This document shows, in pieces, positions 13,137 to 57,400 of a stretch of 64,000 nt of DNA. Origin of the DNA: an uncultured Myxococcales bacterium (GTDB taxonomy: Bacteria > Myxococcota_A > UBA9042 > GCA-2863065); the NCBI GenBank assembly GCA_964545715.1, contig CAZJHX010000003.1, forward strand, positions 81,644 through 145,643, read 5' to 3'. Within the stretch, counting starts at the first letter, position 1. Each line of letters opens with the position of its first letter. A program made the translations under genes and the position numbers. The notes below the pieces were generated by a model that made no database searches, was not told where the DNA came from, and saw only the letters and a program-made list of their open reading frames with translations.

Positions 13137-14996
13137 TCAGACCGCTGCCGGAGCGGCGGTGTCTGAGTCTTCCTTGTCTTCTGTCTCTACGGCCTTGGCA
13201 GCCTCGGGGGCGGCCTCAGCCTCGGCCGGTGCGGCTTCGACGGCATCGTCTGAAGCGGCTTCGGCGGTCTCGGCGGTCTCGGCGGTCTCGGCAGCCTCAC
13301 CCTCAGAGGCGGCTGTCTCAGGCTCGGGCTCAGGCTCGGGCTCGGGCTCGGTGACCACCGGCTCCGGATCCACGTCCGACATCAGCGCCTCATAGCCACC
13401 GGCCTCGGCTTCCTCTTCGAGGTAGCTGCGGCTGGCGTCACGAATCGAGCGCGCCTTCTTGATGCCGATGCTCTCAATACCCGCCAGGCGGGCCAGGTCC
13501 TTCTCGGTCGCGATGGACTCCACAGTCGTGTAGCCCGCCTCGAGCAGCGCATCCAGCAAGGACTTGCTGAGCCGCGGCACGTTCTGCAGGCGACCGATCT
13601 CCCGGTCCTGCGGCAACGTCACCTCGACCGCCGGCGCGATGGGACGACGCGGGGCCGCCTCGCGAGCGCGCGGGTCGGGACTGGCGTCCTTCACCTGCTG
13701 AGCGATCTTGTGGATCCCGGCGACCGTCTCGGCCGTGATGCCCGGAATCATCGTCAACTCTTCGGCGCTGGCCGCCAGAAGGTTGTCCGGCGAGTGGAAG
13801 CCCAACTTGAAAAGGTACTCGATGGTGGAGGCGTCCAGGCCTTCATCCTCGAGGGCGAGCATGTGCGAACGCAGCTCGTCCTTCATCTCGTTGATCTTCG
13901 TCTCGGAGTGGATCTCGATCTTCCACCCCACCAGCTGGCTCGCCAGCCGCACGTTCTGCCCGCGACGACCGATGGCCAGGCTGAGCTGGTCATCGCCGAC
14001 GATGAGCTCGATCGTATTCGTGGCGTCATCGATGAGCACGCGCGACACGTCCGCCGGGGCGATAGCGTGACACACGAACTTGGCGATGTCGGAGCTCCAC
14101 GGGACGATGTCGATCTTCTCGCCACGCAGCTCTTGAACGACGGCCTGGACGCGCGCGCCCTTCATGCCGACGCAGGCGCCGACGGGATCGACGTCCGAGT
14201 CCGAGCTGGCGACGGCGATCTTGGTCCGCTCGCCGGGCTCACGCGCGACGTTTACGATGCGGACGATGCCCTCGTAGATCTCCGGAACCTCCATTTCGAA
14301 CAATTTCAAAATGAGGCCGATATCGGTGCGGCTCAGGATGATCTGCGGGCCTTTGGCAGCCTTGTTGACGTCCTTCACGTACGCCTGAACGCGGTCACCG
14401 GCGCGGTAGGACTCACGCGGCATCTGCTCGCGAATCGGCAGCACGGCCTCGGCGCGGCCAAGGTCTACGATGACATCGCCGCGCTCGAAGCGCCGCGCGA
14501 TCCCCGTGACCAGCTCGCCCGAGCGGTCCTTGTACTCGTTGAAGACGATGTCCCGCTCGGCCTCGCGGACGCGCTGGATGATGACCTGCTTGGCGGTTTG
14601 GGCGGCGATGCGGCCAAACGTGTTGCGCTGCGTCTTCACGCGCAGGATGTCGCCGTACTTTTCGTCTTCCTCGCGAGCTCGCTCAGCGTGCTCCTCGAGG
14701 TAGAAGATCTGAAAGCCCAGCTCGTCGCCCACCTGCGCCTCGGGGTCCACTTTGGAAGCGATCGGCAGAGGCATCTGCGTGTCGTCGTCGTCAGCCTCCT
14801 CAACCACCTCCATGTACTGGAACAACTCGACCTGGCCGAGCTCCTCTTCGTACACGGCCTCGAGCTGTCGCTCGTAACCAAAGACCTTCTTGGCCGCTGT
14901 GAGAATCGAGGCTTCAATGGCCTCGACGAGCACCGTTCGGTCGATGCCCTTCTCCTTGCTGACCTGCGATATCACCGGGTTGAGATTCTGGCTCAC
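13137..14996 (-). CDS. nusA: Transcription termination/antitermination factor NusA with HhH repeats and an acidic tail
   Basis: FGRIAAQTAKQVI, AREPGERTKIAV, GACVGMKGARV, AIGRRGQNVRLA. Confidence 0.97.
   Translation of the reverse strand: MSQNLNPVISQVSKEKGIDRTVLVEAIEASILTAAKKVFGYERQLEAVYEEELGQVELFQYMEVVEEADDDDTQMPLPIASKVDPEAQVGDELGFQIFYLEEHAERAREEDEKYGDILRVKTQRNTFGRIAAQTAKQVIIQRVREAERDIVFNEYKDRSGELVTGIARRFERGDVIVDLGRAEAVLPIREQMPRESYRAGDRVQAYVKDVNKAAKGPQIILSRTDIGLILKLFEMEVPEIYEGIVRIVNVAREPGERTKIAVASSDSDVDPVGACVGMKGARVQAVVQELRGEKIDIVPWSSDIAKFVCHAIAPADVSRVLIDDATNTIELIVGDDQLSLAIGRRGQNVRLASQLVGWKIEIHSETKINEMKDELRSHMLALEDEGLDASTIEYLFKLGFHSPDNLLAASAEELTMIPGITAETVAGIHKIAQQVKDASPDPRAREAAPRRPIAPAVEVTLPQDREIGRLQNVPRLSKSLLDALLEAGYTTVESIATEKDLARLAGIESIGIKKARSIRDASRSYLEEEAEAGGYEALMSDVDPEPVVTEPEPEPEPEPETAASEGEAAETAETAETAEAASDDAVEAAPAEAEAAPEAAKAVETEDKEDSDTAAPAAV
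13255..13350 (-). repeat. Short coding tandem repeats in the NusA tail (AET x3, EP repeats)
   Basis: ggtctcggc x3 and (ggctcg/ggctca)n visible in the DNA. Confidence 0.7.
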
Positions 14997-15538
14997 TGCC
15001 CCTCCGTCGCATCGAAAACGTACTTCAAATTCGCTTTTCTGATCCCGGTCACCGGGATATTGACCTTCTTCCCGGTGTCGACCGTCATCAAAACCTCGCC
15101 GCCGTCTGTGCCGGCGAGAATGCCCGTAAAGTTGCGGCGGTCGCCCACCGGGTCACGGGTCTTGATGACCGCCTTGCTGCCCTCGTATCGCGCAAAGTCC
15201 GACAGCCGCCCAAGGGGCCGGTCCAGGCCGGGAGATGACACCTCGAGGGTGTAGGCGCCAGCTACGGACTCCTCCACCTCGAGCACGACATCCAGCTGGC
15301 GTGACGCCTTGACGCAGTCGTCCAGGGTCACTCCACCGGGCTGGTCGATGAAGAAACGCAGCACTCCGCGGCCGCCGTTGGGGCGGGGGCCGTGGTACTC
15401 CACGTGCACGCACTCGAAGCCGAGGCTCTCGAGAACGGGCTCGCATACCGACATCACGCTCGTCTCGAGCTTGCCGGTCGCGATTCGCGGGTTGTCCTGG
15501 TCGATCATCATCTCCATCGTGCTGCCAAAATTTCCCAT
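14993..15538 (-). CDS. rimP: Ribosome maturation factor RimP
   Basis: LRFFIDQPGGVTLDDC, YTLEVSSPGLDRPL. Start is probably ATG 15538 or slightly downstream, not the ORF-track 15709. Confidence 0.93.
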   Translation of the reverse strand: MGNFGSTMEMMIDQDNPRIATGKLETSVMSVCEPVLESLGFECVHVEYHGPRPNGGRGVLRFFIDQPGGVTLDDCVKASRQLDVVLEVEESVAGAYTLEVSSPGLDRPLGRLSDFARYEGSKAVIKTRDPVGDRRNFTGILAGTDGGEVLMTVDTGKKVNIPVTGIRKANLKYVFDATEGQ

Positions 15539-15550
15539 CCGGTTTTGCCT

Positions 15551-15580
15551 AAAAAAAAGGCGGGCGACTAGTCGACCCGC
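15551..15580 (-). terminator. Terminator-like attenuator in the rimP leader
   Basis: Minus strand GCGGG-U-CGAC-UA-GUCG-CCCGC-C-U8, ending 12 nt upstream of rimP ATG 15538. Confidence 0.7.
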
Positions 15581-15631
15581 TGTAGCATGCCGAATGTGAG
15601 GAACGCGCGGGACCTTAGCAGAGCAATACGG

Positions 15632-15660
15632 TTGCTTCAAGCGAATTCCGAGGCTATAAG
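15632..15660 (+). promoter_or_regulatory. Sigma70-like promoter for the pssA-pyrE fusion operon
   Basis: TTGCTT-17 bp-TATAAG, ending 8 nt before ATG 15669. Confidence 0.5.
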
Positions 15661-15668
15661 CACGCCCG

Positions 15669-16976
15669 ATGACGGCGGCCACATCACGGTTAAAATACGT
15701 CTTTCCCAACGCGGTAACCGCGATCGGGATGCTCTTCGGGTTGTACTCGATTACCCTAACGATTGTAGGGGATTACGAGCAAGCAGCGTGGATGATCCTG
15801 GTCTGCGTCCTGATCGACAAACTGGACGGTAGCGTTGCGCGCCTGCTCAACGCCTCCTCGCGTTTTGGCGTGGAGCTGGATTCCTTCAGTGATTTCCTAA
15901 CATTCGGGGTCGCTCCGGGGCTGCTTTTCCTGAGTCTGATGACCGATGATCCGCGCTATATGTCCACGTGGCAGGGCGGCAGCGTCTGGTTTGTGCGCTT
16001 CTCGTGCGGCTTCTTCATCGTGATGGCGGCGCTGCGACTGGCCAAGTTCAACGTGCTGACTGAGGAGATCGGGTCCAAGATCTTCCTGGGCATCCCGACC
16101 ACGCTGACGGGCGGGACGTTGGCTGCGTACGTCCTGACGGTCTGGAAATACGACCTGCCGGACGTGATGCTGCAGTACGCGCCCGTGATCCTCATCGTCT
16201 TCGGGCTGTGGATGGTGTCCAACGTGCCCATCCCCAAGATTCGGGTCACGAAGAGCCTGGCGTTCAACATCTTTACGGCGGTCAATGCGGTCGGCGCCTA
16301 TGTGTGCACGCCGCTGCAGGTGCTGCCCGAGTACCTGTTCGCGGTCGCCTTCGGCTATTGCACGATCGGCACCTGGTACGCGCTGGTCTTCATGAAGCCG
16401 GAGAAGGCGCCGCCGGAGGACACCCGAGCGCGGCTGCTGGAGCTTCTGAAGGAGCTGAGCTACGAGAACCGCGAGATCACGCTGGCCAGCGGACAGAAGA
16501 GCAACTTCTACGTCGACTGCCGCAACACCTCGCTGCACCCCGAGGGCATCGTGCTGTGCGGGCGCGAGCTGCTGGATCTACTGCAGGAGGATGGCCCGGA
16601 GTTTGACGCGGTGGCCGGCCCGTCGATCGGCGCGGATCCGCTGATCAGCGGGATTCTGCACGCTAGCCAGGAGCGCAAGTCGCCCATTCCGGGGATGTTT
16701 GTGCGCAAAGAGCCCAAAGGGCACGGCACCGGGCGGCTGCTCGAAGGCACGCGCAACGTAAGGGACGGCGCACGCATCGCGATTGTGGAGGACGTCATCA
16801 CCACGGGCGGCTCCGCGATTCGCACGATTCGGGCCGTGCGCGAGGCCGGCTACGAGGTGGTGCGGCTGGTGGCCCTGGTCGACCGCCAGGAGGGCGGCGT
16901 GCCCAAGCTGGAGGCGGAGAAGGTCGAGGTCACGACGCTCTTCAAGAAGAGCGACTTCATCGGGAGCGGCACCTGA
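15669..16976 (+). CDS. Fusion of a CDP-alcohol phosphatidyltransferase (PssA-like) and orotate phosphoribosyltransferase (PyrE)
   Basis: N-terminal DKLDGSVAR..NASSRFGVELDSFSD; C-terminal LASGQKSNFYVDCR, VRKEPKGHG, IVEDVITTGGS; single uninterrupted frame. Confidence 0.9.
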   Translation: MTAATSRLKYVFPNAVTAIGMLFGLYSITLTIVGDYEQAAWMILVCVLIDKLDGSVARLLNASSRFGVELDSFSDFLTFGVAPGLLFLSLMTDDPRYMSTWQGGSVWFVRFSCGFFIVMAALRLAKFNVLTEEIGSKIFLGIPTTLTGGTLAAYVLTVWKYDLPDVMLQYAPVILIVFGLWMVSNVPIPKIRVTKSLAFNIFTAVNAVGAYVCTPLQVLPEYLFAVAFGYCTIGTWYALVFMKPEKAPPEDTRARLLELLKELSYENREITLASGQKSNFYVDCRNTSLHPEGIVLCGRELLDLLQEDGPEFDAVAGPSIGADPLISGILHASQERKSPIPGMFVRKEPKGHGTGRLLEGTRNVRDGARIAIVEDVITTGGSAIRTIRAVREAGYEVVRLVALVDRQEGGVPKLEAEKVEVTTLFKKSDFIGSGT

Positions 16977-17620
16977 AGGCGGGGCTCCGCGGCAGCACGG
17001 TCGTCCTGGCTGCCTTGATGACGGTCACGGCCGTCGGGTGCAGTCAGCCGAAAGTGGTGCTGGGGCAGGGCGACCGCGCCTACACGGCCCAGAGCTACAA
17101 GCAGGCGCTGACGGAGTGGACGCGCCGTGGCGAGATGTACAAGGACTTTCTGTCGCGCGTTTTCGCGTATGGCACGTACCGGGATTGGTCGTTTCGGCAG
17201 GCCCAGGTCACGTATCGCGCGCGCACAGAGCGGCTCCCGGCGCTGGATGTCGCCCGTCTGCGCGAGCAAGAGCGCCGTGAAGCGCAGAACGGGCACCACT
17301 TCTTCCTGGCGGTGCACACGCACGAGTGGTCCTGGAATCATCTGGAGCGACAGGGGGACGAGGCGCTGTGGCGGCTGCGTCTGATCAACGATCAGGGGGA
17401 CTCGGTGGCGCCGACACAAGTGCAGCGGATCGGGCTGCGAAACGGGCGCTATACGCCACTTTATCCGTACTACGAGGACTTTTATGTGGGGTACCTTGTA
17501 CATTTTCCGCGCCTTACGGAGCGCGGACGTGAGATCCTCCGCAAAGGCATCGGTGAGTTTACGGTGCGGATCAGTGGACCGCAGGCGGTTGTCGACCTGC
17601 GATGGGCGGTGGCGCCATGA
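16973..17620 (+). CDS. Putative lipoprotein (probable CTG start overlapping the upstream TGA)
   Basis: From CTG 16973: (M)KAGLRGSTVVLAALMTVTAVG-C signal peptide; GGGAG 6 nt upstream. The ORF track starts it at 17015. Confidence 0.65.
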   Translation: MKAGLRGSTVVLAALMTVTAVGCSQPKVVLGQGDRAYTAQSYKQALTEWTRRGEMYKDFLSRVFAYGTYRDWSFRQAQVTYRARTERLPALDVARLREQERREAQNGHHFFLAVHTHEWSWNHLERQGDEALWRLRLINDQGDSVAPTQVQRIGLRNGRYTPLYPYYEDFYVGYLVHFPRLTERGREILRKGIGEFTVRISGPQAVVDLRWAVAP

Positions 17621-18534
17621 CGCAGCACACAACATCGGCGTGGGATGACACGCCGCTCTACTATGAGCTGCACGGGCTTCCGGTCGGTGAGGCGCCGGCT
17701 GTGGTGCTGTGCGACGGCATCGGCTGCGACGGCTTCATCTGGAAGTATCTGACGCCCTGGCTGAGCGAGCGGTACACCGTCTTGCACGGCCATTATCGCG
17801 GCCACGGGCGCTCGGGCAAAGCGCCGTCCATGGACCATTATAGTATTGCGGACACGGTCAAAGACCTGTTCACGGTGATGGATGATGCCGGCGTCGAGAG
17901 TGGCCTGCTCTTCGGGCACTCGATGGGCGTGCAGGTGACTATCGAAGCTGCGCTCAGCGCGCCCGAGCGGGTGAACGGGCTCAGCCTGCTCTGCGGCAGC
18001 TTTGGGCGACCGCTGGATACGTGGCACGACCACGCCATGTTGAAGTCTGCGCTGCCTCGCATGCAGTGGTTCATGAGTCGCTTCGGTGGGCTGGTCGAGC
18101 CGGCGCTGCGGCGTCTCATGCCGACCAGCATCGGCTGGCTCTTTGCCCAGGGGGAGGTCGACGGCGCGCTGCTGCGTCGGGAGGACTTCATCCCGTACCT
18201 GGAGCACCTGTCCAAGATGGACAGCTCAGTCTTTCTACGGATGCTGGAGGAGGCGTCCAAGCACACCACTGAGGACCGGCTGCAGCAGCTGGATCGCCCG
18301 GTGCTGATCGTGGGCGGAGAGCGCGACAAGTTCACGCCGTTCTGGGTCAGTGAGGTGTTGGAGAGTCATCTGCCCAACGCGGAGCTGCACATGGTGCGGG
18401 GCGGAACGCATACGATCCCGCTCGAGCATCGAAAGCTGACGGAGATGCTGATCGACAGCTGGCTGTCGCGAAACGCGCTGGCTGAGCCAGTCGCGGATGA
18501 GCCGGCCTACAGGGCGAGCTCGTCGTCCTCGTAG
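17617..18534 (+). CDS. Alpha/beta fold hydrolase
   Basis: YRGHGRS, GHSMG nucleophile elbow, GERDKFTP, GGTH; ATGA overlap with the upstream gene. Confidence 0.9.
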   Translation: MTQHTTSAWDDTPLYYELHGLPVGEAPAVVLCDGIGCDGFIWKYLTPWLSERYTVLHGHYRGHGRSGKAPSMDHYSIADTVKDLFTVMDDAGVESGLLFGHSMGVQVTIEAALSAPERVNGLSLLCGSFGRPLDTWHDHAMLKSALPRMQWFMSRFGGLVEPALRRLMPTSIGWLFAQGEVDGALLRREDFIPYLEHLSKMDSSVFLRMLEEASKHTTEDRLQQLDRPVLIVGGERDKFTPFWVSEVLESHLPNAELHMVRGGTHTIPLEHRKLTEMLIDSWLSRNALAEPVADEPAYRASSSSS

Positions 18535-18905
18535 AAGAGGGTGTCCATCTGCGTGAGCAGTTTGTTGAGGAACTGCTCTTCCCTCCCTTTGATCTCCAGG
18601 AAGCGCACGCCCATGCCGGGGTGCATGACCGGGTTCGTCTCGTCGTACTCGCGGACCCAGCGGACCTCGGCGCGCGTCTCGAACGTGTGATCGACGCCGG
18701 GGACTGAGAAGCTGACCTGCAGAATGCTGCCCAGGGGCAGCGTCTCATAGGTGGAGATGAACAGCCCGCCCGCCGAGATGTCCTCGGTGAAGCCGGTGAA
18801 GAACTGGTGTCCCGTCTGCGCCCCGACCTCGATTCGCTTCGCATGCCGCTCGTGCTCGCGTCGCTCTTCGTAGTTGGGCTGTCGGGCTGTTGACTGCTGT
18901 GGCAT
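18507..18905 (-). CDS. Stand-alone PilZ domain protein (TIGR02266 myxobacterial type)
   Basis: REHER (RxxxR), FFTGFTEDISAGGLFI, EVRWVRE, PGMGVRF. Confidence 0.85.
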   Translation of the reverse strand: MPQQSTARQPNYEERREHERHAKRIEVGAQTGHQFFTGFTEDISAGGLFISTYETLPLGSILQVSFSVPGVDHTFETRAEVRWVREYDETNPVMHPGMGVRFLEIKGREEQFLNKLLTQMDTLFYEDDELAL

Positions 18906-18982
18906 CTGTCTTTCCTTGCGTGGCGTCTGAAGTGGGTATCGGCCCGCTTGCGCACACGGTTAAGGAAAACAATGCGCCGTAA

Positions 18983-20101
18983 TTAGAAAGAGACTCGGAA
19001 GAGCTGCTGGCCCATCAGAAGAAGATCGCCGTCGAAGACCGCGGCGCTGCCCTTGATGCGCACGTACGTGCCGTTGGAGCTGTCGAGGTCCTCCAGGTAG
19101 AGGGCTCCGTTGCGGCGGGTGAGGGTTGCGTGGCGGCCGGAGACGTAGCCGTCGCCGGGGAAGGTGATGTCTCCGCGCTCGCGGCCCAGGGTCACGAAGC
19201 GGCCGCTCAGCAGATAGGAGTTGCCGATGAGATCCGGGCTCATGAGCTGGACGAGGCGACCCCAGACGCCCTCTGAGACCGGGCCGCCGAGCAGCTCGGT
19301 GCCGTCGGACGGGATCGGGTAGTCGGCGGGCGACTTGTCCAGGTCCTCGTAGCGGAGCAGCTCCTGGCCCAGGCGGAAGGTGTCGCCGTGTTGCAGCAGA
19401 GCGGGCTCCGTGATGCGGATGTAGGAGCCGTTCAGAGACTCGTTGTCCTCGACCGTGACCATGTCGCCGTCGACGGTCATGTTGGCATGGTGCGGGCTGA
19501 GGTAGACATCGTCGTCAAAGAACATGTCATTGCCGTCACGGCCCAGGGAGTTGACGCCCTCGAACATCTCGAAGGACCGGCCGTCGGACCCGTCCTCGTT
19601 GATAAGGACCAGGCGGATGCGCGAGTGGTTGCGCTCGCCCGGCTCGGCGACCAGCTCCGGCTCAGGCTCCGGGAAGCGGTAGCCGCAGAGGCCGCAGAAC
19701 TTGGTGCTGTGGTCGAGTACGCCACCGCAGCCCGGGCAGCGCTGGCCGTCGTCTTCCTCGCCGGCGGGCAGGTTCTCCAACGGGTCGGCCGCGGTCTCGA
19801 ACTCGCCCGTTGTGGAGGCGCCCGGGCGCTGATCGGCCGCCCAGTCGGGTGATGAGCCTTCGCCCCACCAGTTGGACTCGACCGGGGCCGTCTCTGCGGC
19901 CGGCACCTCGACGGTGTCCTGGGCCAGGGCCGCGACGTCGGGCTGGGGAGCCGCGGCGACGGGGTCGGGCTTCTTCGGCTTTGGCGCTGCTGCCGGTTTC
20001 AACTCTTGAGCTGCGGGTGCGCGGGACAGATCTCCGCCGCACTTCAAGCAGAACTTGAAGAAGCTCTCGTTGACATGGGTGCAGTGCGGGCACTCCTTCA
20101 T
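18983..20101 (-). CDS. Zinc-ribbon plus double FHA domain protein
   Basis: CPHC..CLKC and CPGC..CGLC; two GR..SxxH..NG[ST] FHA motifs. Confidence 0.9.
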   Translation of the reverse strand: MKECPHCTHVNESFFKFCLKCGGDLSRAPAAQELKPAAAPKPKKPDPVAAAPQPDVAALAQDTVEVPAAETAPVESNWWGEGSSPDWAADQRPGASTTGEFETAADPLENLPAGEEDDGQRCPGCGGVLDHSTKFCGLCGYRFPEPEPELVAEPGERNHSRIRLVLINEDGSDGRSFEMFEGVNSLGRDGNDMFFDDDVYLSPHHANMTVDGDMVTVEDNESLNGSYIRITEPALLQHGDTFRLGQELLRYEDLDKSPADYPIPSDGTELLGGPVSEGVWGRLVQLMSPDLIGNSYLLSGRFVTLGRERGDITFPGDGYVSGRHATLTRRNGALYLEDLDSSNGTYVRIKGSAAVFDGDLLLMGQQLFRVSF

Positions 20102-48433: not shown

Positions 48434-51400
48434 ATGGCCAGAAGCATAGAAGCACTGCGCGAGCAGTTGACCGGCGGCGCGGCGCTTGACGAGAGCGCCC
48501 TGCACGAGCTGGAGCAGCACTACTCGACCAACGGTGACGAGCTCTCCCAGCTGTTCGTCACCTACCGCGAAATCGTGGAGTCCGTGACCGACGTGGCCAG
48601 CGTGAGGGTGCTCCGGCGCCGCCTGGTCAAGGTCTTGGATGGGGTTCTGGGCGACGAGTCCAACGAAGCGACCCGAGGGACGCTGCGCCGCCGAAAGGGC
48701 GAGCTGCTGACGTCGCTGGAAGATGGCGACGCGATCGGTGAGCTGGCGCAGGCCTTTCGGGAGCTGCCGGATGAGCAGGTGCTGGACGCGCTGGGCGGCT
48801 TTGTCGACCTGGACGCGCAGCCCGCGCTCAAAGTCGACGTGCTCAGAGCCCGCTTCAAGCTGGCGGGCGAGCCCGGGCGGCGGGCGATCGCGGCGCTGGA
48901 GCTGGGCGCGCAGCTGCTGGGCGATCAGCAGCTGGATGAGGCCGAGGAGATGTTCCAGAGCGTCCTCGAGCTGGAGCCGGGGGACGAGACCGCCACCGGC
49001 GCGCTGACGACGATCACCGAGATTCGCGAGGCCCGCCAGGCGATGCTGGACGAGCTGCGCGCGGACGTCGAAGCGGGCAAGGGCACGGACAAAGTGCCGG
49101 CGCTGCTGGCGCTGGCCGAGGCGATCTTCGATGACGGCGGCGACGAGGCGGAGGCGGTTGCGGCGGTCGAGCAGGCCTGTGAGTTGGTGCCGGGCAACGG
49201 CGATGCGGCGTCACTGTTGCTGTCTCGCTACGTGGCGGACGAGCGGTGGGACGATATCGCGACTGCAGGCGACCGGTGGATCGAAGCGGCCTCCTCAGAC
49301 GACAAGCTGGAGGCGCTGCGGACGGTTGGTGTCGCGCTGCTCGATGGCGGCGAGGACTTCACCGAGCCGGCGTTGGCGCACCTGCAGGCGGCGCACAAGC
49401 TGAACGCGGCTGATCCGGGTACGGTCGATGGTCTGAACCGTGCGTTGAGCGCGCTTGAGCGGCACGACGAGTTGGTGGCTGTGCTGCAGGCGGGCCGCCG
49501 GGCATCGCGCGTGCGCAAGGACGAGCGCCGGTGGTTGGTCCGCGAGGCGGAGATCGTCTGGCGGCATCAGGGCCTGATGGACAAGGCCGAGAAGATGTTC
49601 CGGCGCGTCCGGGCCAGCGATCCGCGCGACATGACCGCGCTGCTCTTTTACGAGGATCACCTGTCGCAGAAGGGCGACTGGAAGCGCCTGCACGCGATTT
49701 TGAGCCAGAAGTTCACGCTGGTGGCCAAGGAGTCGCGCGTCGACGTGGCGTCGCAGATGGCGGACATCGCCGAAAACAAGATGAGCAACCTGGCCAAGGC
49801 GATCGAGGCCTACAAGCGCGTGCTTATCGAGGATCCGAGCAATCTGCGTGGGGCCGAGCACCTGGTCGAGCTGTACCGCAAGACCGGCAAGTGGCACGCC
49901 CTGATCGAGTTCCTGAACAGCCAGATCCGACGGCTGGGCGCCCAGGACATCGAGGCGCGCGTGGCGCTGCTGTTCCAGATCATCGACGTCTACCAGGACC
50001 CGGACAAGCTGCCGGTCGAAGAGATGGTCATCCACACCTACAACCGCATCGTGCAGGTGTCGCCGACCAACGTGGTCGCGCTGGACAACCTGGCGCAGCG
50101 CTACGAGGACTCTCGGCGCTGGAGCGAGCTGGTCAAGGTGCTGCAGAAGAAGATCCACGCCACGACGGACGCGGAGATGCTGCTGGACCTGTTCCACCAG
50201 GTGGCCGACCTGTACCTGTCGAAGATGTCCAGCGAGAGCCAGGCGATCCCGTTCCTGGAGCGCATTCTGGAGCTGGATCCGACCAACCTGGACGTCGTGC
50301 GCAAGCTGCGCTCGATCTACAAAGCCAAACACAACCTGGAGCGGCTGTACGGCACGTACGAGGCCGAGCTCAACCTGTTGGAGGGCAAGAAGCGCGAGCC
50401 CGTGCTGACCGAGCTGGCGGTGCTGGCCACGGACAAGCTGTACTGGCAGGCGCAGGCGATCGAGCACTGGGAAGAGCTGCTCGGCCTGAACCCCAAGAAC
50501 GAGAAGGCGGTCACCAGCCTGTACGCGCTGTATGCGCAGGACGGGCGGTGGGAGAAGTACGTCGAGCTGCTGGAGAGCCGGCTGGAGCTGGCGCGGACCA
50601 AGCGCAAGAAGGTCGAGATTCTCGGCCGCATCGGCCAGATCCGGTTCGAGAAGCTGGACCAGGTCGACGAAGCGGTCAAAACGTACAAGCAGATTCTGAA
50701 GACCAGCGCGCACAACGCGGCGGCGCGCAAAGCGCTGCAGCGGATCTACATCTCGGCGCAGGACTGGGACGCGCTGAAGGCGCTGTATGCCGAGCAGAAG
50801 GACTGGACCGGGTACATCGCGTTCTTGGACGAGACCGCCTCGCAGGAAGACGATCCGGTGCTGGCGGCCGAGATTCAGCTCGAGGTCGTGAGGGTCTTTG
50901 AGGAGAAGCTCAAGAAGAAGGCGAAGGCCGTTGAGCGGCTGGAGCAGGTGCTGGAGAAAGACGCGCAGAACGTGGATGTCGCGGCGATGCTGGACGAGCG
51001 CTACTCCGCGCTGAAAGAGACGGAGAAGCGCGTGCCTGTGCTGCAGGTGATTGCGGATTACAGTCAGGCGCCCGCGGCGGTGATCGAGGCGCTGCGCATG
51101 GGTGTGGAGCTGCTGCTTGGCGGCGACAAGGCGTCCGACGCGCTCGACTGGGCGATGAAGGCGGTTGACGCCGGGATCGACGAGGGACAGCTCGAGGGCG
51201 TTGATCAGCTGGAGGAGCTGGCGGACAAAGCGGAGCGGCTGGAGGACCTGTCGGCGTGGTACGGCGATGCCGCCACGCGCGTTGGTGCGCCGGAGGACCG
51301 CACGGATCTGCTGAAGCGGCATGCCGAGCTGCTGCGCCATCGTCTGCGGAAGAACGCCGACGCGATCGAGGTGTATGAGGAGCTCAGCCGCGCGGATGAC

Positions 51401-54400
51401 GTGGACTGGGACACCCTCAAGAACCTGGAGGAGCTGACCCGATCGGAGCGGGACTGGCAGGCGCTGGAGCGCGTGCTGCAACGCGAGATCACGGTGCTGG
51501 ACGGATCGACGGCCAAGAAGAAGGTCGCGCAGCGTCGGGTGTGCCGGCTGCAGCTGGGGCAGCTGTACGAAGACATCATCGACGATCCGGATCAGGCGAT
51601 CGCGTGTTATCGCGCGATTCTGGCGGAGAAAGCGGGCGACCCGGAGGCCGTTGAGGGGCTGGACCGCATCTTCAGCCTGGAAGAGCTGTGGGAAGAGCTG
51701 TTGGCGCTGCTCGAGGGCGAGCTGGAGCGGGCCGAGGAGCCCGTGTCCCTGATGAACCGCATCGCGGGGATTCTGTACGAGAATGTGGGAGACCCGTCCG
51801 GGGCGATCGATCGGCTGCAGCAGGCGTTGGACGTGGACCCGGTGAACGCGGAGACGGTCAAGCTGCTGGACAAGCTGTTTGATGCGGACGAGTCCCGTGA
51901 GCGGGTCAGCGGGATGCTGAGCCCGGTGCTGCGCGAGATCGAGCGCTACGACCGCCTGGTCGAGGTGCTGAGCGACGGGCTGGGGACGACCGAGGATCCG
52001 GACGACCGGCGCGCGCTGCTGGCGGATATCGCGACGCTGCGTGAAGAGAAGCTGAAGGACGCGGCGGGGGCGTTTGTGCTGCGGGCCGAGCAGGTCGCGC
52101 TGATGCCGTCCGATGTGGCGGCGCGCGGCGAGTTTGAGCGGCTGGCGGAGGAGCTGTCGCAGTGGCCGGATGTGGCGGCGCTGTATGCCGTGGCTGTCGG
52201 GCTGGAGGGCGTTGAGGCGCCGCTGGACCTCGGCGGTGTGGTGCCGCTCGAGGACACGAACGAGGAGACCGCGCTTACCCGCCGATTGGCGGAGATCTAC
52301 GAGGTGCAGGTCGAAGAGCTCGATCGAGCGACCGAGTGCTATGAGCGCGTGCACACCTTCGATCCGGAGGATCTGGACATTCTGGCGGCGCTTGAGCGAC
52401 TGCATGCGCGCCGGCAGGACTGGGACGCCATGCTGGCGATCCTGCGCGTGAAGGCGGAGCTGACGTGGGAGGTGGACGACAAGAAGGCGGTCTACCTGGA
52501 GATCTGTCAGCTGCTGCGCGACGAACTGGATCGGCCTGAGGACGCGATCGAGTTCTATCGGATGTTCCTGGAGCTGGACGAGGGCAACCTGGAGGTCATC
52601 GGCGAGCTCGAGAGCTTGTTCGCCGAGTTCGAGCGCTGGGAGGACCTGGTCGACCTGATGCGCCGTCGCATCGGGCTGGTCGACAACAAAGACGCGCGCA
52701 TCGAGATCCTGTTCGAGCTGTCCGTGGTCTTCCGCGATCGGCTGGAGGACGTGGACAAGGCGATCGATACGTTCGGTGCGATCCTGACGGACGAGCCGGA
52801 CCACGAGGAGACGATCACAGCGCTTGAGGCGCTGCTGCTGCGCGAGGATCTGGGCGGGTACGACCAGTTTGCGCTGCGGGTGGCGGATATCGTGCAGCCG
52901 TGGTTCCACGAGAAGGGCGAGTGGCAGCGCGAGATCAAGGTGATCCAGGTGCGTGCGGCGCTGGCCGCCGACGACGTGGCCAAGGCCAAGCACCTGTGCT
53001 CGGTCGGGCAGCGCACGGAAGACAAGGGCGACTCATTGGAGGAGGCGTTCGGCTTCTACGCTGAGGCGTTCAAGCTGGATCCAGCCAATGAAGACGCGAC
53101 GGCGGCGCTGAAGCGGTCGGCGGAGACCCTGCAGTGCTGGGAAGACTGGGCCGACGTGCTGGAGGAAGGCGCACGGGACGACGAGCCGAGCGTTGCGGTG
53201 CCGGTCCTGATGACGGTTGGCGGGCTGTGTCGTGAGCAGCTGGCGGACGATGAGCGGGCGATCAAGACATTTACCCGCATTCTGGACATGGATCCGGTGC
53301 ATGCGGGGGCGCTGGAGGCGCTGGACGAGCTGTATGACGTGGCCGACAACGCCACCGAGCGCGTGGCGATTTTGGAGCGGCGGGCGGAGAGCGCGGAGCA
53401 CGAGTCGACGCGGCGGGCGCTGATGTTCGAGGTCGGCAAGATCCACCAGGCGTTGGGAAACACGGAAGACGCGATCAGCGGGTTTGCGTATGTCGCCGAG
53501 CACGGCGATGCGGCCATGGAGGAGATCGCGGCCGAGGCGCTGGACCAGCTGCAGCAGCTGTACACGGAGCTGGAAGACTGGATGCAGCTGGTCGGTGTGC
53601 TGTTGGCCAAGGCCGACGTTGCAGGCGACGACGAGCAGCGCATCGGGTGGCTGCTCGAGGCGGCGAGCACGCAGGAGCAGAAGCTCAGCAACACCGATGA
53701 GGCGATCAAGCTGTACGAGCAGGTGTGCGAGGTCGAGACGGGCCATCCGTCGGCCTTTGACAACCTGGCGCGGCTGCTGGATGCGGCCGAGCGGTGGGAC
53801 GATCTCGAGGAGCTGTTCCTGGGGGCGCGGGCTGTCGCGGGGCCGGATGCGGCCAACAAGTACGACTTCATGCTGGGGCAGCTGTACGACCATCGGTTGG
53901 GGCGCGCTGAGGACGCGATCAACCACTACGAGGCGATTTTGGATCGCACGCCGGACTTTGTGCCGGCGCTGAAGTCACTGGCGCAGGCGATGGACATCCC
54001 GGAGCACGGGCTGCGCGCGTCGGAGGTTCTGTTGCGGGCGCACAGCGCGACCGACAACGCCGGTGAGCTGGCTGGCGTGCTGACGAAGCGCCTGGAGTCG
54101 TGGCCGGACGAGATCGAGCTGAGCGCGACGCACATTCAGTTGGCCAAGATCCTGGAGAGCGAGTTCTCGGATGCCGAGAAGGCGTTCGACAACCTGTGCC
54201 AGGCGGCGATCATCAACTGGGTCGAGCCGCCTGAGCTGCGCGATGACCTGGTGCGGCTGGCCGAGGAGACGGAGCGCTGGGACGAGCTGGAGGTGGTCGA
54301 TCGGGAGGTGCTGGACGCCGCCGACGATGACCTGGAGCGGGTTGCGGTGCTGATGGAGATGGCGCGTGTGGCGCGGTTCCATCGCGAGGATGGCGACGCC

Positions 54401-57400
54401 GCGGAGGCGCGCTATCGCGAGGTGTTGGAGATCGATGCCGGGCACGCGGACAGCCTGGACGCGCTGCGCGAGATCTACGAGGAGTCGGGGCGGTCGGCGG
54501 ACATCGTCGAGGTGCTGCAGGTCAAGGCTGAGCTGGCAGGTGACGGGGCTGAGAAGATCGCGATTCTGTACCAGATCGGGGCGCTGCAGCTCGGTGAGCT
54601 GGACGAGAAGGCCGCGGCGATCGAGACGTACGAGCAGATCGTGGCCCTGGAGCCGCTGGAGCGCGACGCGTATCGGCAGATCGAGCAGGTCTATGCGCTG
54701 CAAGAGGCGTGGGACGAGGTCGTGGCCGTGCTGGGGCGCGAGCTGGATGTGCTGGATGACCAGACCGATCGCGTGGCGACGCGGCGGCGGATGGCGGAGA
54801 TCCTCTACCACAAGGCGGAGGACCGCGATCGCGCTCTGGACGAGGTGACCGCGCTGCTGGAGGTGGATACCGAGCACGCGACGGCGCTGTCGATTCTGGA
54901 GGCGGCGCTGGCGGATGGGCATGCGTATGACCGGGTGATCCGGCATCTGGTGCCGATCTATGAGTCGGTGCAGAACTGGGAGAAGCTGATCGCGCTGTAT
55001 GAGAGCCATGCGGAGCGCAGCGAGACGGCCGGGCAGCTGTGGGCGTTGGAGGAGATCCGGCGGATTCAGCTGGAGAACAAGAACGACGCGGGGGCGGCTT
55101 ACGACGCGTTCAAGCGGATCGTGCGGTTGGCGCCGGAGGATAGCGGCCGTCGGGGCGACCTGGAGAACATGGCGCGCGGGCTGCGCAAGCACGCGGATGT
55201 GGCGGCGTTTTACGGGACGCTGTTGGATGACAATCCGGATGCCGGCTACGCGGTGCCGGTGGCGCTGAAGGCGGCGGCGCTTTACGAGGATCCGCTGCAC
55301 GACACGGACAAGGCGATCGAGAAGTACCGCTTTGTGTTGGAGCGTGAGGTGACCAACGAGACGGCGCTGCCGGCGCTGTCGAAGCTGTTTGAAGCGGATG
55401 AGCGTTGGGATGAATTGGCCGAGCTGCAGGGCAGGGCGGTCGATGAGGTGCTGGACGCCGGTGAGCGGCGACGGCTGCTGTTTGAGCAGGCGCGGCTGTA
55501 CATGGATCGGCTGGAGCAGCCGGAGAAGGCGGTCGAGTCGCTGCAGCGGGCGCTGGACGAGAACCCGGACAGCCGGGAGGCGCTGGCTCGCCTGGAGGGG
55601 CTGTACAGCGAGCTGGAGCGTTGGGAGGACACCGAGGACCTGTACCGGCAGTGGCTGGAGGTCGCGGAGCCGCCCGACGAGACGACGGCGGTGCGGTATC
55701 GGCTGGCGCTCTTCGCGGTGGACCAGCGGGCGGACTACGCCATGGCGCTGGATGAGCTGGAGCGGACGATCGGCGAGAAGCCGGACCATGGCCTGTCTGT
55801 GGCGCTGCTGGAGCGGATCGTCGGGCATGTGGAGCTGCCGGAGCCGGAGGCGGCACAGGTTGGCGCGCAGGCGGCGGAGCTGCTGGCGAAGCTCTATGAC
55901 AAGGAGACGCCCTGGGAGAGCTGGGCGGCGGTGCATCGGGCGCGGCTGGCGGCGGCGGAGGAGCCGCGGGCGAAGATGAAGCTTCATACGCAGCTGGGCG
56001 ACCTGCTGTTGAAACGGGCGGAGGACCCGGAGCAGGCATTTGCGCAGTACGGGGCGGCGTTCACGCTGGACTTCGGCAGCGAGAAGCTGACGCGGAAGTT
56101 GGAGACGCTGGCGAAGAAGCACGAGCTGTGGGACGCGCTGGTGGTGGTGTATGAGCAGGGGTTGGATGAGGCGCCGGATGACGATATCCGGAGCCGGTAT
56201 CTGCTGAAAGTCGCGACGATCAATAGGGAGCATCTCGCGAATGCGGCGGCCGCGGCTGCTGTGTATGAGCAGCTGCTGGAGATCAACCCGAGCGATGGCG
56301 AGGCGCTGGGCGCGCTGGAGAGCTACTACGAAGAGGCGGACGCGTGGAAGGACCTGGCGCGAGTGGCGCGGCTGCGGCTGGATACGACGCATGAGTCGGC
56401 GGATCGGATCGCGATCTTGTATCGCATTGCGAGTCTGGAGCTGGACCAGCTGGGCAACCAGGACAATGGGGTCGAGGCGCTGCGCGAGATTCTGAGCATG
56501 GATGCGTCCGAGAAAGACGCCAAGGACATGCTGGAGTGGCTGCACTCGGCGCGCGAGGAGTGGGCGGATCTGGTGCAGGTCTTCCGGTGGAAGCTGGACT
56601 ACGCGGAGGAGAATGACGAGCGGATCGATCTGCTGAGCAAGACGGCGCAGATTCAGGAGCGCCAGCTGATGGCGCCTGAGGACGCGGTGACGACGTATCG
56701 GGAGATTTTGGAGACGTCGCCGCAGAACCTGTACGCGATCACGAGCTTGGAGCGGCTGTATCCCGAGATCGAGGATTGGGCCGGGATGCTGGAGATCCTG
56801 GAGCGCAAGCGTGGATTGTTCCAGGCGCCGCGGGACCGAGTGGACGTGGACTTCCAGATGGGCGGGCTGCTGTTCGATCGTTTGGGGGAGCCGGAGCGTG
56901 CGCTCGAGCACTTCAGGATGGTGCTGAGTGAGAGCCCCGAGCATGAGGGCGTGATCGAGTATCTGGAGAAGATGCTGGAGAACGAGAATGTGCGGATGCC
57001 CACCAGCTTTGTGCTGGAGCCGATCTATGAGCAGCGGCAGGACTGGGCGCGGCTTGGGATGTTGCTCGAGGTGCAGCTGACGGATGCGGAGGAGCCTCAA
57101 GAGCAGGTCGATCTGTTGAAGCGGCTTGCGGAGCTGCGGGACCAGGATCTGGACGACCCGGATGGCGCGATCGCCGCGCTTGGGCAGGCGTTTCAGTTGG
57201 ACCCGCATGACGCTGAGGTGCGGGATGGTCTGACGAGCGTGGCGGACCGCAGCGAGCGCTGGGAGGCGCTGTCGGCGGTGTATCACGAGGCGCTGGCGGC
57301 AGTGACTGATGTGGATGTGACACGCGAGGTCAGCGGCTGGCTGGCGGAGCTGTCGGAAAAGCATCTGAACGATCCCGAGGGCGCTGTCGATCGGTACATG

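Follow-up and report, generated by a model that had tools for sequence, protein, structure and literature searches.

A fused pssA–pyrE gene in an uncultured marine Myxococcota lineage and its probable origin from two neighbouring genes

The locus and its fused reading frame

The window, by which we mean the whole stretch of 64,000 nucleotides that was analysed, contains a single open reading frame (ORF) that starts with ATG and encodes 435 residues (Table 1). From the N- to the C-terminus, the encoded chain comprises one PssA-type CDP-alcohol phosphatidyltransferase (residues 1–242), one linker of 10 residues and one complete orotate phosphoribosyltransferase (OPRT or PyrE, residues ∼252–435). 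The junction of the two halves reads ...ALVF-MKPEKAPPEDT-RARLLELL... and holds neither a stop codon nor a change of frame. The sequence-only reading had claimed one 435-residue frame with a CDP-alcohol motif, transmembrane (TM) helices and a complete PyrE; this observation is confirmed.

Table 1. Features of the fused locus, in window positions
Feature	Position	Strand	Basis or remark
Divergent intergenic region between rimP (−) and the fusion gene (+)	15539..15668	.	Presumed promoter region of the pssA–pyrE operon; gene calls on identical contigs
Fused pssA–pyrE ORF	15669..16976	+	435 aa plus stop; identical in at least nine independent contigs; fused orthologs L010, L001 and L003
PssA-type CDP-diacylglycerol–serine O-phosphatidyltransferase domain, residues 1–242	15669..16394	+	Pfam, NCBIfam; MjPSS 7POW/7B1K by sequence and fold
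Linker, residues 243–252, MKPEKAPPED	16395..16424	+	Low-pLDDT coil 242–251; dN/dS about 1; junction codons
Complete orotate phosphoribosyltransferase (PyrE) domain, residues 253–435	16425..16973	+	TIGR00336, 5HKF alignment, Foldseek
ORF of ∼200 aa with lipoprotein-like N-terminus (lipobox AVGC), no Pfam family	16973..17620	+	Directly after pyrE in every locus
α/β-hydrolase gene, last conserved member of the gene string	17602..18534	+	Pfam Abhydrolase_1/6 and Hydrolase_4 on orthologous genes

The PssA–PyrE fusion is real and heritable, and it is not an assembly error. The exact 435-residue protein is present on at least nine contigs from several marine metagenomes, which were obtained from different samples and with different assemblers, and the 1308 nt of the fusion gene show zero differences in five further contigs. 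The junction region (16380–16440), for which the sequence-only reading had asked for read support, is spanned by Logan contigs from three marine metagenome runs with zero substitutions and zero indels. For the window's protein, neither the reads nor close relatives pointed to a stop codon or frameshift, and neither half is predicted from its sequence to be inactive. The metatranscriptome runs from the same study contained 0% of the fusion sequence's words.

The fusion gene opens a conserved gene string of pssA, pyrE, the lipoprotein-like ORF and the α/β-hydrolase gene, which is divergent from rimP-nusA-infB. In gene calls on identical contigs, rimP encodes 181 residues and ends 130 nt before the ATG of the fusion gene (2325–2870 versus 3001 on contig L011); given these calls, a 238-residue rimP ORF seen in the window is an over-extension. 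No Rfam element was found in the divergent intergenic region. The frame of the lipoprotein-like ORF opens across the stop codon of the fusion gene (CTGA). In L004, L006 and L003 the start codon of this ORF and the stop codon of pyrE share bases, in the form GTGA or TTGA; the equivalent codon of the window is CTG, and canonical starts are located at 17015 and 17018.

The PssA and PyrE halves

The PssA half matches Pfam CDP-OH_P_transf (PF01066) at residues 11–167, with a score of 59 bits against a cutoff of 22. Among the lipid-synthase families of NCBIfam, pssA is by far the best-ranked for this half; different from type II phosphatidylserine synthases (PSS), its score against pssA TIGR00473 (97.5 bits) lies just under the trusted cutoff of 107. 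The stretch DKLDGSVARLLNASSRFGVELDSFSD corresponds to the CDP-alcohol motif D50xxD53G54xxA57R58x8G67xxxD71xxxD75, with Asp50, Asp53, Asp71 and Asp75 as the catalytic residues, and Asp50, Asp53, Gly54, Ala57, Arg58, Gly67, Asp71 and Asp75 are all invariant across 51 homologs. The residues that form the serine (Ser1) site have been listed for Methanocaldococcus jannaschii PSS (MjPSS) (PMC8633023). When the PssA half was aligned to 7POW/7B1K, MjPSS Asp62, Ser63, Asp66, Arg101 and Phe105 were matched by Asp71, Ser72, Asp75, Arg123 and Phe127, which are invariant or nearly so among the homologs. The Asp residues that bind the metal are likewise conserved.

The fold of this half is also that of a type II PSS, as in MjPSS (7B1K/7POW) and the Bacillus-type PssA. 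The AF2 model was built from an alignment of fused and PssA-only rows; PyrE-only rows were left out, as MAFFT placed them on the PssA half. It contains helices at residues 7–32, 36–59, 65–93, 105–130, 144–160, 171–183, 197–216 and 220–241 (pLDDT 95–98) and the PSS-specific β-strands 138–140 and 187–189, and Foldseek aligned it with 7POW/7B1K at a TM-score of ∼0.80. Like type II PSS, the PssA half has an N-terminal amphipathic, horizontal helix, eight TM helices, a short two-stranded cytoplasmic β-sheet and both termini on the cytoplasmic side, and the hydropathy and charge bias agree with this topology. Compared to MjPSS it has ∼35 extra loop residues, and its helix 8, unlike that of type II PSS in general, carries at its C-terminus a soluble enzyme of 185 residues. 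Helices 7–8 are specific to PSS and absent from PIPS and DIPPS; helix 8 sits at the outer ends of the PSS dimer and belongs to the mobile lid, specific to PSS, that covers the substrate pocket (PMC8633023). Judged by these motifs, the PssA half would most likely catalyse CDP-DAG + L-serine → PS + CMP at the membrane interface.

The PyrE half scores 127.7 bits against pyrE TIGR00336 (cutoff 106.8) and covers model positions 11–172 of 173; Pfam Pribosyltran matches residues 343–416 of the fusion. The type I PRT core is present in full, together with the N-terminal hood. Residues 252–424 aligned end to end with Mycobacterium tuberculosis OPRT 5HKF (E 4e-30), and Foldseek gave TM-scores of 0.84–0.89. 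The AF2 model is of a monomer, and its alignment has only four rows over this half, where the pLDDT is lower, at about 70–90. Overall, the half resembles the short actinobacterial-type OPRTs (M. tuberculosis PyrE 5HKF/5HKI and C. diphtheriae 2P1Z) in end-to-end alignment (∼36% identity), fold and the common RKxxKxHG flexible loop, VEDxxTTGxS PRPP loop and DR..GG motif. Different from these, it is not free and soluble; the 10-residue linker ties its N-terminal helix to a membrane enzyme.

In the window, the flexible loop is R344-K-E-P-K-G-H-G and the PRPP loop is VEDVITTGGS. The segments IAIVEDVITTGGS, FVRKEPKGHG and LVDRQEGG correspond to VLVVEDTSTTGNS, VVRKSAKAHG and VVDRATGA of M. tuberculosis OPRT, so that the catalytic loop, the PRPP loop and the Arg of DRQEGG all match an active enzyme. 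The S. typhimurium/E. coli equivalents of the catalytic positions are presumably K73, R99, K100, K103, H105, D124, D125 and R156. Purifying selection acts on both halves (dN/dS 0.15–0.28; 0.15–0.23 for the PyrE half), and tblastn found no second pyrE in the 64-kb window. With these motifs intact, the PyrE half would most likely catalyse orotate + PRPP → OMP + PPi on the cytoplasmic face. OPRT is an obligate homodimer, each subunit completing the active site of its neighbour with the flexible loop, and it tolerates N-terminal fusion partners.

Fusions of comparable build are known for each half. In bifunctional IPCT-DIPPS (Archaeoglobus AF0263/AF2299-type), one CDP-alcohol phosphotransferase is fused to a cytoplasmic enzyme domain that lies over the active-site face (PMC8633023). 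IPCT-DIPPS is thus a precedent for a membrane domain of this family that covalently bears a soluble cytoplasmic enzyme; there, however, the partner is N-terminal and performs the preceding step of the same pathway, whereas in the window the partner is attached C-terminally and comes from an unrelated pathway. OPRT is part of a larger polypeptide, including one with an N-terminal partner, in UMP synthase (PyrE-PyrF, with the order reversed in Leishmania, 3QW4) and in cyanobacterial PyrF-PyrE (NF004034); 3QW4 and NF004034 both came up as matches to the PyrE half. In those proteins the partner is the soluble next enzyme of the pathway, whereas in the window it is an integral membrane enzyme of lipid synthesis.

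Fused and unfused relatives

Three fused orthologs (L010, L001 and L003), at 81%, 67% and 59% identity to the window's protein, share its synteny. In all four, the frame is continuous, with neither an internal stop nor a conserved internal start, and no Shine-Dalgarno (SD) sequence at the junction is conserved among them. The linker is variable in sequence and fixed in length, with a dN/dS of about 1; in the AF2 model it is a flexible, low-pLDDT coil at residues 242–251, rich in Pro, Glu and Lys. The distance between the PEY and RLL anchors is exactly 105 nt in four of the four fused orthologs; in unfused orthologs it is 109, 139 or 166 nt, all of which are 1 mod 3.

The sister marine Myxococcota MAGs (L004, L006, L008 and L017–L021) carry the same orthologous genes in the same synteny, with the lipoprotein-like and hydrolase genes downstream, but as two ORFs in different frames, with stop, SD and start at the junction. 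In the closest of them (L004, L006 and L008), pyrE lies directly after pssA, with a 4-nt gap or 11–14-nt overlaps, and the SD for pyrE is located inside pssA. In GTDB MAGs of the wider family, pssA and pyrE also adjoin but are unfused. In neighbor-joining trees with bootstrap, the fused set was monophyletic on PyrE (97–100%) and on the concatenation (87%); on PssA only it was not recovered as monophyletic (6%), so two parallel fusions remain conceivable. The fusion probably arose in one event.

Since the two genes are already adjacent in the unfused relatives, abutting or overlapping and with the SD of pyrE inside pssA, the fusion goes back to a merging of the frames of two translationally coupled genes. 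In the operon of this uncultured marine Myxococcota family, pyrE is translated by coupling, with its start overlapping or abutting the pssA stop. A small length change of 3n+1 nt in the overlap merged the two frames in one sub-lineage, removing the pssA stop and the pyrE start together; an L006-like arrangement lies just 4 nt from the fused state. The product would be one polypeptide of ∼48 kDa, in which the cytoplasmic C-terminus of an eight-TM PSS, at the end of helix 8, bears a complete OPRT on a 10-residue linker. We consider it quite probable that this is a genuine gene fusion by frame merger of the coupled pssA–pyrE pair, made as one chain whose two reactions most likely run independently. 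It offers a clean natural example of overlapping, translationally coupled genes giving a fusion protein.

In the fused L003, the PyrE half has lost the catalytic loop, the PRPP loop and the hood, so at least one lineage can do without OPRT activity from the fusion. Three separate deletions in the eroded half have all preserved the frame, and its dN/dS is <1. The sister lineages therefore present three stages: unfused genes (L004/L006/L008), a fused gene predicted to be bifunctional (the window, L010 and L001) and a fused gene with one half decaying (L003). They could serve as a small test bed for whether 'Rosetta-stone' fusions imply functional linkage, and for whether an obligate-dimer OPRT can work while tethered to a membrane dimer.

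The sequence-only reading did not know the fusion as a described architecture, and so far this holds. When 1.84 billion cluster representatives were searched exhaustively, only one 50%-identity cluster spanned both halves, and no other fused PssA-PyrE family was found among them. A profile search of metagenome contigs with the fused alignment returned one distant unrelated match and no new fused members, and nothing relevant to either the fusion or the gene pair turned up in full-text literature searches. Long PyrE-containing matches were examined as candidates for further membrane-tethered PyrEs. P0115 (DsbD_2 plus PyrE), P0073 and P0103 are mis-called ORFs with Arg/Pro/Gly-rich wrong-frame segments, and P0072, P0086, P0087 and P0116 are soluble fusions of PyrE with YgfZ/CAF17-like domains. 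There is no support for a general membrane-anchoring theme for PyrE. The architecture appears to be genuine, rare, undescribed and evolutionarily ordinary.

Membrane tethering, coupling and translation

Both termini of the PssA half are cytoplasmic as in MjPSS, according to the AF2 model, Foldseek, hydropathy and charge bias. Because the PSS fold puts its C-terminus on the cytoplasmic face and that terminus bears PyrE, PyrE would be tethered to the membrane on this face, provided that translation of the ORF gives a single chain. It would then be the first noted enzyme of de novo pyrimidine synthesis that is covalently anchored to the membrane via a phospholipid synthase. The sequence-only reading had proposed that the fusion tethers pyrimidine synthesis to the membrane or couples it to phospholipid synthesis. 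Given one chain, the tethering follows from the anatomy, but metabolic coupling of the two halves is speculative; the frame merger of adjacent coupled genes explains the fusion fully. What the fusion brings would then be a fixed 1:1 co-expression of the two halves and a membrane location for PyrE, and it is possibly nearly neutral.

Alternatively, the fusion could have been selected for a pay-off of PyrE tethering or of the link to PssA, which we consider unlikely. Among the possibilities, OPRT may sit beside a class-2 dihydroorotate dehydrogenase, which would be bound to the membrane and release its orotate there; pyrimidine (CTP/CDP-DAG) supply may be matched to phospholipid head-group synthesis; or the PRPP/orotate-binding PRT fold may serve as an allosteric sensor that acts on PssA through its mobile helix 7/8 gate. 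Such selection would fit a fused state that lasted through deep divergence (dS saturated, amino acid identity down to 59%) and in which both halves stay constrained, and a pssA–pyrE adjacency that is kept family-wide. However, the fusion is limited to one narrow clade, sister lineages with equally similar enzymes are unfused, and the two reactions share neither substrates nor products. The anchor spacing of 105 nt is invariant while the linker sequence drifts, but this constraint on length comes from four sequences only. Membrane-anchored PyrE is not recurrent either, its apparent examples being the mis-called ORFs described above.

In its most specific form, this alternative makes PyrE, attached to helix 8 in the PSS-specific mobile lid (PMC8633023), a membrane-localised OPRT or a PRPP/orotate sensor that links pyrimidine status (CTP, CDP-DAG supply) to PS/PE synthesis, and in the L003 lineage a dead pseudoenzyme kept for a structural or regulatory role. 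We regard this as improbable, and as a shade more so than selection in general; if true, it would be a new mode of regulating a CDP-alcohol phosphotransferase. The eroded, in-frame PyrE of L003, with its three deletions and dN/dS <1, would fit a retained non-catalytic role, but the frame may also have been kept because translation of the lipoprotein gene downstream is coupled to the ORF stop (TTGA).

It is less likely still that two proteins are made despite the fused ORF, that is, that PyrE is mainly separate and soluble through initiation at the ATG at 16393 or through proteolysis of the linker, with the fusion chain minor or transient. This ATG (16393–16395), which the sequence-only reading did not mention, encodes Met243, the first residue of the linker, and in the window and L010 it is an in-frame potential start exactly at the linker start. 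Met243 is nevertheless an ancestral PssA residue, which is also conserved in unfused PssA proteins (FFMKDKP, VFMREDNP); at this position L001 has Leu and L003 has Trp. The ATG has no SD. The fusion gene's own ATG has no well-placed SD either, so SD-less initiation may occur in this organism. In L001, GAGG is located 8 nt upstream of an in-frame GTG at Val248, and the Pro-, Glu- and Lys-rich coil could suit proteolysis. The linker of the window holds the relict SD-like GGAGAAGG and GGAGGA (16415–16420), neither of which is followed by a start codon; downstream of GGAGGA there is no ATG, GTG or TTG within ∼20 nt, just as the sequence-only reading had it, whereas a clear SD and start are present in every unfused ortholog. 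With no stop codon in between, ribosomes on pssA must run into pyrE, and the full-length chain would be made anyway. No credible promoter, terminator or RNA element was found at the junction; two terminator-like matches inside pssA are weak stems within coding sequence.

That two separate genes were joined by a chimeric contig, or by an indel from sequencing or assembly, is extremely improbable: high-GC metagenome assemblies do give false fusions, several long database 'PyrE fusion' proteins carry wrong-frame Arg/Pro-rich junk, and pssA and pyrE overlap in different frames in relatives, but here the domains are separated by just 10 residues with no junk segment, the sequence is identical and free of indels across the contigs and runs given above, and the in-frame junction recurs with identical anchor spacing in three other, divergent orthologs that come from unrelated datasets.

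Annotation pipelines name the fusion proteins just 'CDP-diacylglycerol--serine O-phosphatidyltransferase' (P0003). With the PssA name alone, metabolic reconstructions of the MAGs of these marine Myxococcota could score pyrE as missing and arrive at a false pyrimidine auxotrophy.

The fused reading frame

A single 435-residue frame with an intact CDP-alcohol motif and a complete PyrE was the claim of the sequence-only reading, and the ORF, Pfam and NCBIfam all agree with it. The CDP-alcohol phosphotransferase motif, D50xxD53G54xxA57R58...G67xxxD71xxxD75, is complete within residues 1–242; residues ∼253–435 are a full orotate phosphoribosyltransferase (OPRT), in which IAIVEDVITTGGS is the PRPP loop and FVRKEPKGHG the catalytic flexible loop. 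Pfam matched both CDP-OH_P_transf and Pribosyltran. In NCBIfam, the C-terminal half scored 127.7 bits with TIGR00336 (pyrE), above the curated cutoff of 106.8; the N-terminal half scored 97.5 bits with TIGR00473 (pssA), slightly below the cutoff of 107, pssA being clearly its top-ranked lipid-synthase family. As noticed earlier, the linker DNA contains a GGAGGA, located at 16415–16420, and inspection of the junction found no start codon in the ∼20 nt downstream of it. The ATG at 16393, unremarked in that reading, is the first linker codon (M243) and an in-frame potential start.

Features of the fusion locus and of its most divergent fused ortholog
Feature	Position	Strand	Description
Fused pssA-pyrE ORF	15669..16976	+	435 aa, ATG start, without stop or frame break
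Linker	residues 243-252		MKPEKAPPED
Conserved ∼200-aa ORF after pyrE	16973-17620	+	lipoprotein-type N-terminus
L003 fused ortholog	L003:3204-4433		GCA_964343445.1, contig CAYFJQ010000059.1

The fusion is real. The exact protein occurs on at least nine contigs from several marine metagenomes and several assemblers, and five of these, compared base by base, are identical at 1308 of 1308 nt. Read support had been called for at the junction; Logan contigs from three separate runs cross it with 0 substitutions and 0 indels. The three divergent orthologs, L010 (81% identity), L001/L002 (67%, two independent samples) and L003 (59%), are fused as well, have no stop or frameshift at the junction and share the same gene neighbourhood. 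That the fused frame is an artefact is hardly credible, and we reject it.

Hydropathy and the positive-inside rule gave eight transmembrane segments, N-in/C-in. The AlphaFold model (pLDDT 86.5 overall, 95–98 in the membrane part) contains eight helices and two short strands, one between H4 and H5 and one between H6 and H7, followed by a low-confidence coil (242–251) and an α/β PRT fold. The predicted topology agrees with PSS as published: dimeric, with eight transmembrane helices, a cytoplasmic β-sheet and both termini in the cytoplasm, and with helices 7 and 8 as a mobile lid, specific to PSS, over the lipid pocket (PMC8633023). With this topology and architecture, the OPRT domain is predicted to hang from helix 8 on the cytoplasmic face, the side of its soluble substrates.

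In the window, L010 and L001 genes, dN/dS is 0.15–0.28 for PssA and 0.15–0.23 for PyrE; the estimate for the 10-codon linker is ∼1, but noisy. The PyrE half can be aligned over its whole length with OPRT 5HKF from M. tuberculosis, a biochemically active enzyme (E 4e-30), resembles 5HKI/5HKF in fold (Foldseek TM 0.84–0.89) and keeps the flexible-loop Arg-Lys...Lys-x-His-Gly, the PRPP-loop acidic pair plus TTG-S, and the Arg of VDRQEGG. The PssA half matches M. jannaschii PSS in sequence and in fold (TM ∼0.80). In that enzyme, the reacting serine is bound by Asp62, Ser63, Asp66 and Phe105, with Arg101 (PMC8633023); their counterparts in the fusion, D71, S72, D75, F127 and R123, are invariant or nearly so across 51 homologs.

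Origin by merger of adjacent genes

In the closest unfused relatives, whose PssA is 60–70% identical to that of the window, pyrE directly follows pssA, with a gap of 4 nt in L004 and overlaps of 14 nt in L006 and 11 nt in L008. At these three sister marine Myxococcota loci, a Shine-Dalgarno (SD) sequence lies within the pssA 3′ end, pyrE starts with ATG or GTG, and the PyrE N-terminus reads M..D(R)xRLLxLLxELSY. In four further GTDB representative MAGs (L017–L019 and L021, 54–59% identity), the pair is adjacent but in different frames; no pyrE adjoins the more distant Myxococcales PssA at L022 (38%). These arrangements make adjacency the family-wide state and the fusion a derived one. At L020 (2876–3540, MAG CB27_Tmax.68), unlike the tight junctions elsewhere, a spacer of ∼660 nt between pssA and pyrE holds stop codons; either the insertion of a small gene or the decay of a segment could account for it.

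From the conserved motif PEY in PssA to the conserved RLLxLL in PyrE, each of the four fused genes measures exactly 105 nt, against 109, 139 and 166 nt in unfused genes, every one of which is 1 mod 3. Losing a net 3n+1 nt from the overlap would suffice to merge the frames; starting from an ancestor like L006, this is just 4 nt. The window linker contains the SD-like GGAGAAGG, the start codon being gone, and this probably sits at the position of the L006 pyrE SD, AAGGAGAG. The PyrE tree (97–100% bootstrap) and the tree from concatenated sequences (87%) both group the fused genes as a clade; PssA by itself does not resolve them. These clades, the identical junction spacing and the linker motif K-P/A-x-P-E-D common to the fused genes favour one ancestral fusion event.

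Consequences of the fusion and the decayed ortholog

Quite probably, the gene encodes a genuine bifunctional, membrane-anchored PssA-PyrE polypeptide, which arose by frame merger of a translationally coupled pair. Fusion would fix a 1:1 stoichiometry and place OPRT at the membrane; the two enzymes most likely act independently, and a new mechanism is probably not involved. Of the two earlier functional proposals, the anatomy implies membrane tethering but gives no ground for coupling to phospholipid synthesis.

The L003 ortholog differs in its PyrE half. Its true ORF is 409 aa; the database entry (389 aa) misses the ATG further upstream and starts 20 codons too late. Eighteen hood residues are deleted (ELSYENREITLASGQKSNFYV region), IEANDGGE stands in place of the RKEPKGHG loop, with a 5-residue deletion, GDGSR replaces TTGGS, and FDGEEGG replaces VDRQEGG, in which the conserved Arg is lost. 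The frame is kept open through three in-frame deletions, and dN/dS of this half (0.25–0.56) is raised, not neutral. As its motifs predict, the domain cannot be an OPRT; with the catalytic motifs lost, the OPRT activity of the fusion would thus be dispensable in at least one lineage, this variant being known from one MAG contig only. The eroded domain may retain a non-catalytic role as a pseudoenzyme domain. Alternatively, the frame could be kept for translational coupling of the next gene, because the start of the lipoprotein gene downstream and the stop of this ORF overlap as TTGA.

Retention of this dead domain, the long persistence of the fused state and the invariant linker length suggest an adaptive fusion with mechanistic coupling, which could work by orotate hand-over from a membrane DHODH, by balancing pyrimidine against CDP-DAG or by PRT-fold sensing that acts on the helix 7/8 lid; we nevertheless consider it unlikely. 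Still more doubtful is that most PyrE is produced as a separate protein, by initiation at M243 or by cleavage: M243 goes back to ancestral PssA, is replaced in L001 and L003 and has no SD, and with no stop codon ribosomes cannot avoid reading through. Taken together, the loci form a natural series from unfused through fused to half-decayed genes. The fusion can also mislead annotation of the pyrimidine pathway in these MAGs.

Rarity and gene neighbourhood

The architecture is rare and, as suspected earlier, appears undescribed: full-text literature searches found no description of a PssA-PyrE fusion. Among the best 150 HMMER matches in 1.84 billion cluster representatives, only P0004, representing the cluster of the window's protein, covered both halves; the other 149 span residues ∼5–250 or ∼250–432. 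A word-indexed search of 5.8 billion proteins returned the same four fused sequences. Each half appears to be an ordinary member of its own family, only the combination being new. OPRT is known within larger polypeptides, as UMP synthase in both orders and cyanobacterial PyrF-PyrE, and IPCT-DIPPS likewise joins a CDP-alcohol phosphotransferase to a soluble cytoplasmic enzyme. In these, however, the partners catalyse consecutive steps of one pathway, whereas PssA and PyrE come from separate pathways, PssA being an integral membrane protein.

Other database proteins look like genuine PyrE fusions: P0072, P0086, P0087 and P0116 (∼500–520 aa) have an N-terminal PyrE and a YgfZ/CAF17-like (folate-binding, GcvT-type) C-terminal region, and P0066, P0070 and P0079 (∼609 aa) carry adenylosuccinate lyase (PurB) and a C-terminal PyrE. 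P0115, P0073 and P0103 ('orotate phosphoribosyltransferase', 424–515 aa) are false fusions with long Arg/Pro/Gly-rich wrong-frame stretches, caused by over-extended ORFs in high-GC DNA; in one of them the apparent DsbD_2 + PyrE architecture is spurious.

The conserved locus comprises infB-nusA-rimP on one strand and, divergently, pssA(-)pyrE, the ∼200-aa ORF and an α/β hydrolase, followed by PilZ and FHA genes. The ∼200-aa ORF matches no Pfam family; its lipobox reads ...AVGC, LATAC or FALGC in the window and relatives. The relatives have GTGA or TTGA where the start of this ORF and the pyrE stop overlap (L003:4430, L004:∼11366, L006:11348); the window equivalent is CTG (CTGA, 16973–16976). 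With a CTG start the protein would have a proper signal peptide, MKAGLRGSTVVLAALMTVTAVGC; from the canonical starts, 17015 and 17018, it would have just 8–9 residues ahead of the Cys. A non-canonical CTG start may be used.

A mechanical rimP ORF (14993–15709, minus strand, 238 aa, TTG) overlaps the fusion gene start. On identical contigs rimP is called at 181 aa, ending at ∼15538, which shows the overlap to be an artefact of ORF listing and leaves a divergent intergenic region of 130 nt. Right after the operon, in the window (18507–20101, minus strand) and at the orthologous loci of all relatives, lies a PilZ, FHA/zinc-ribbon and Ser/Thr kinase cluster, a signalling neighbourhood typical of Myxococcota. 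The window also contains a giant ORF of 3820 aa (48434–59896, plus strand).
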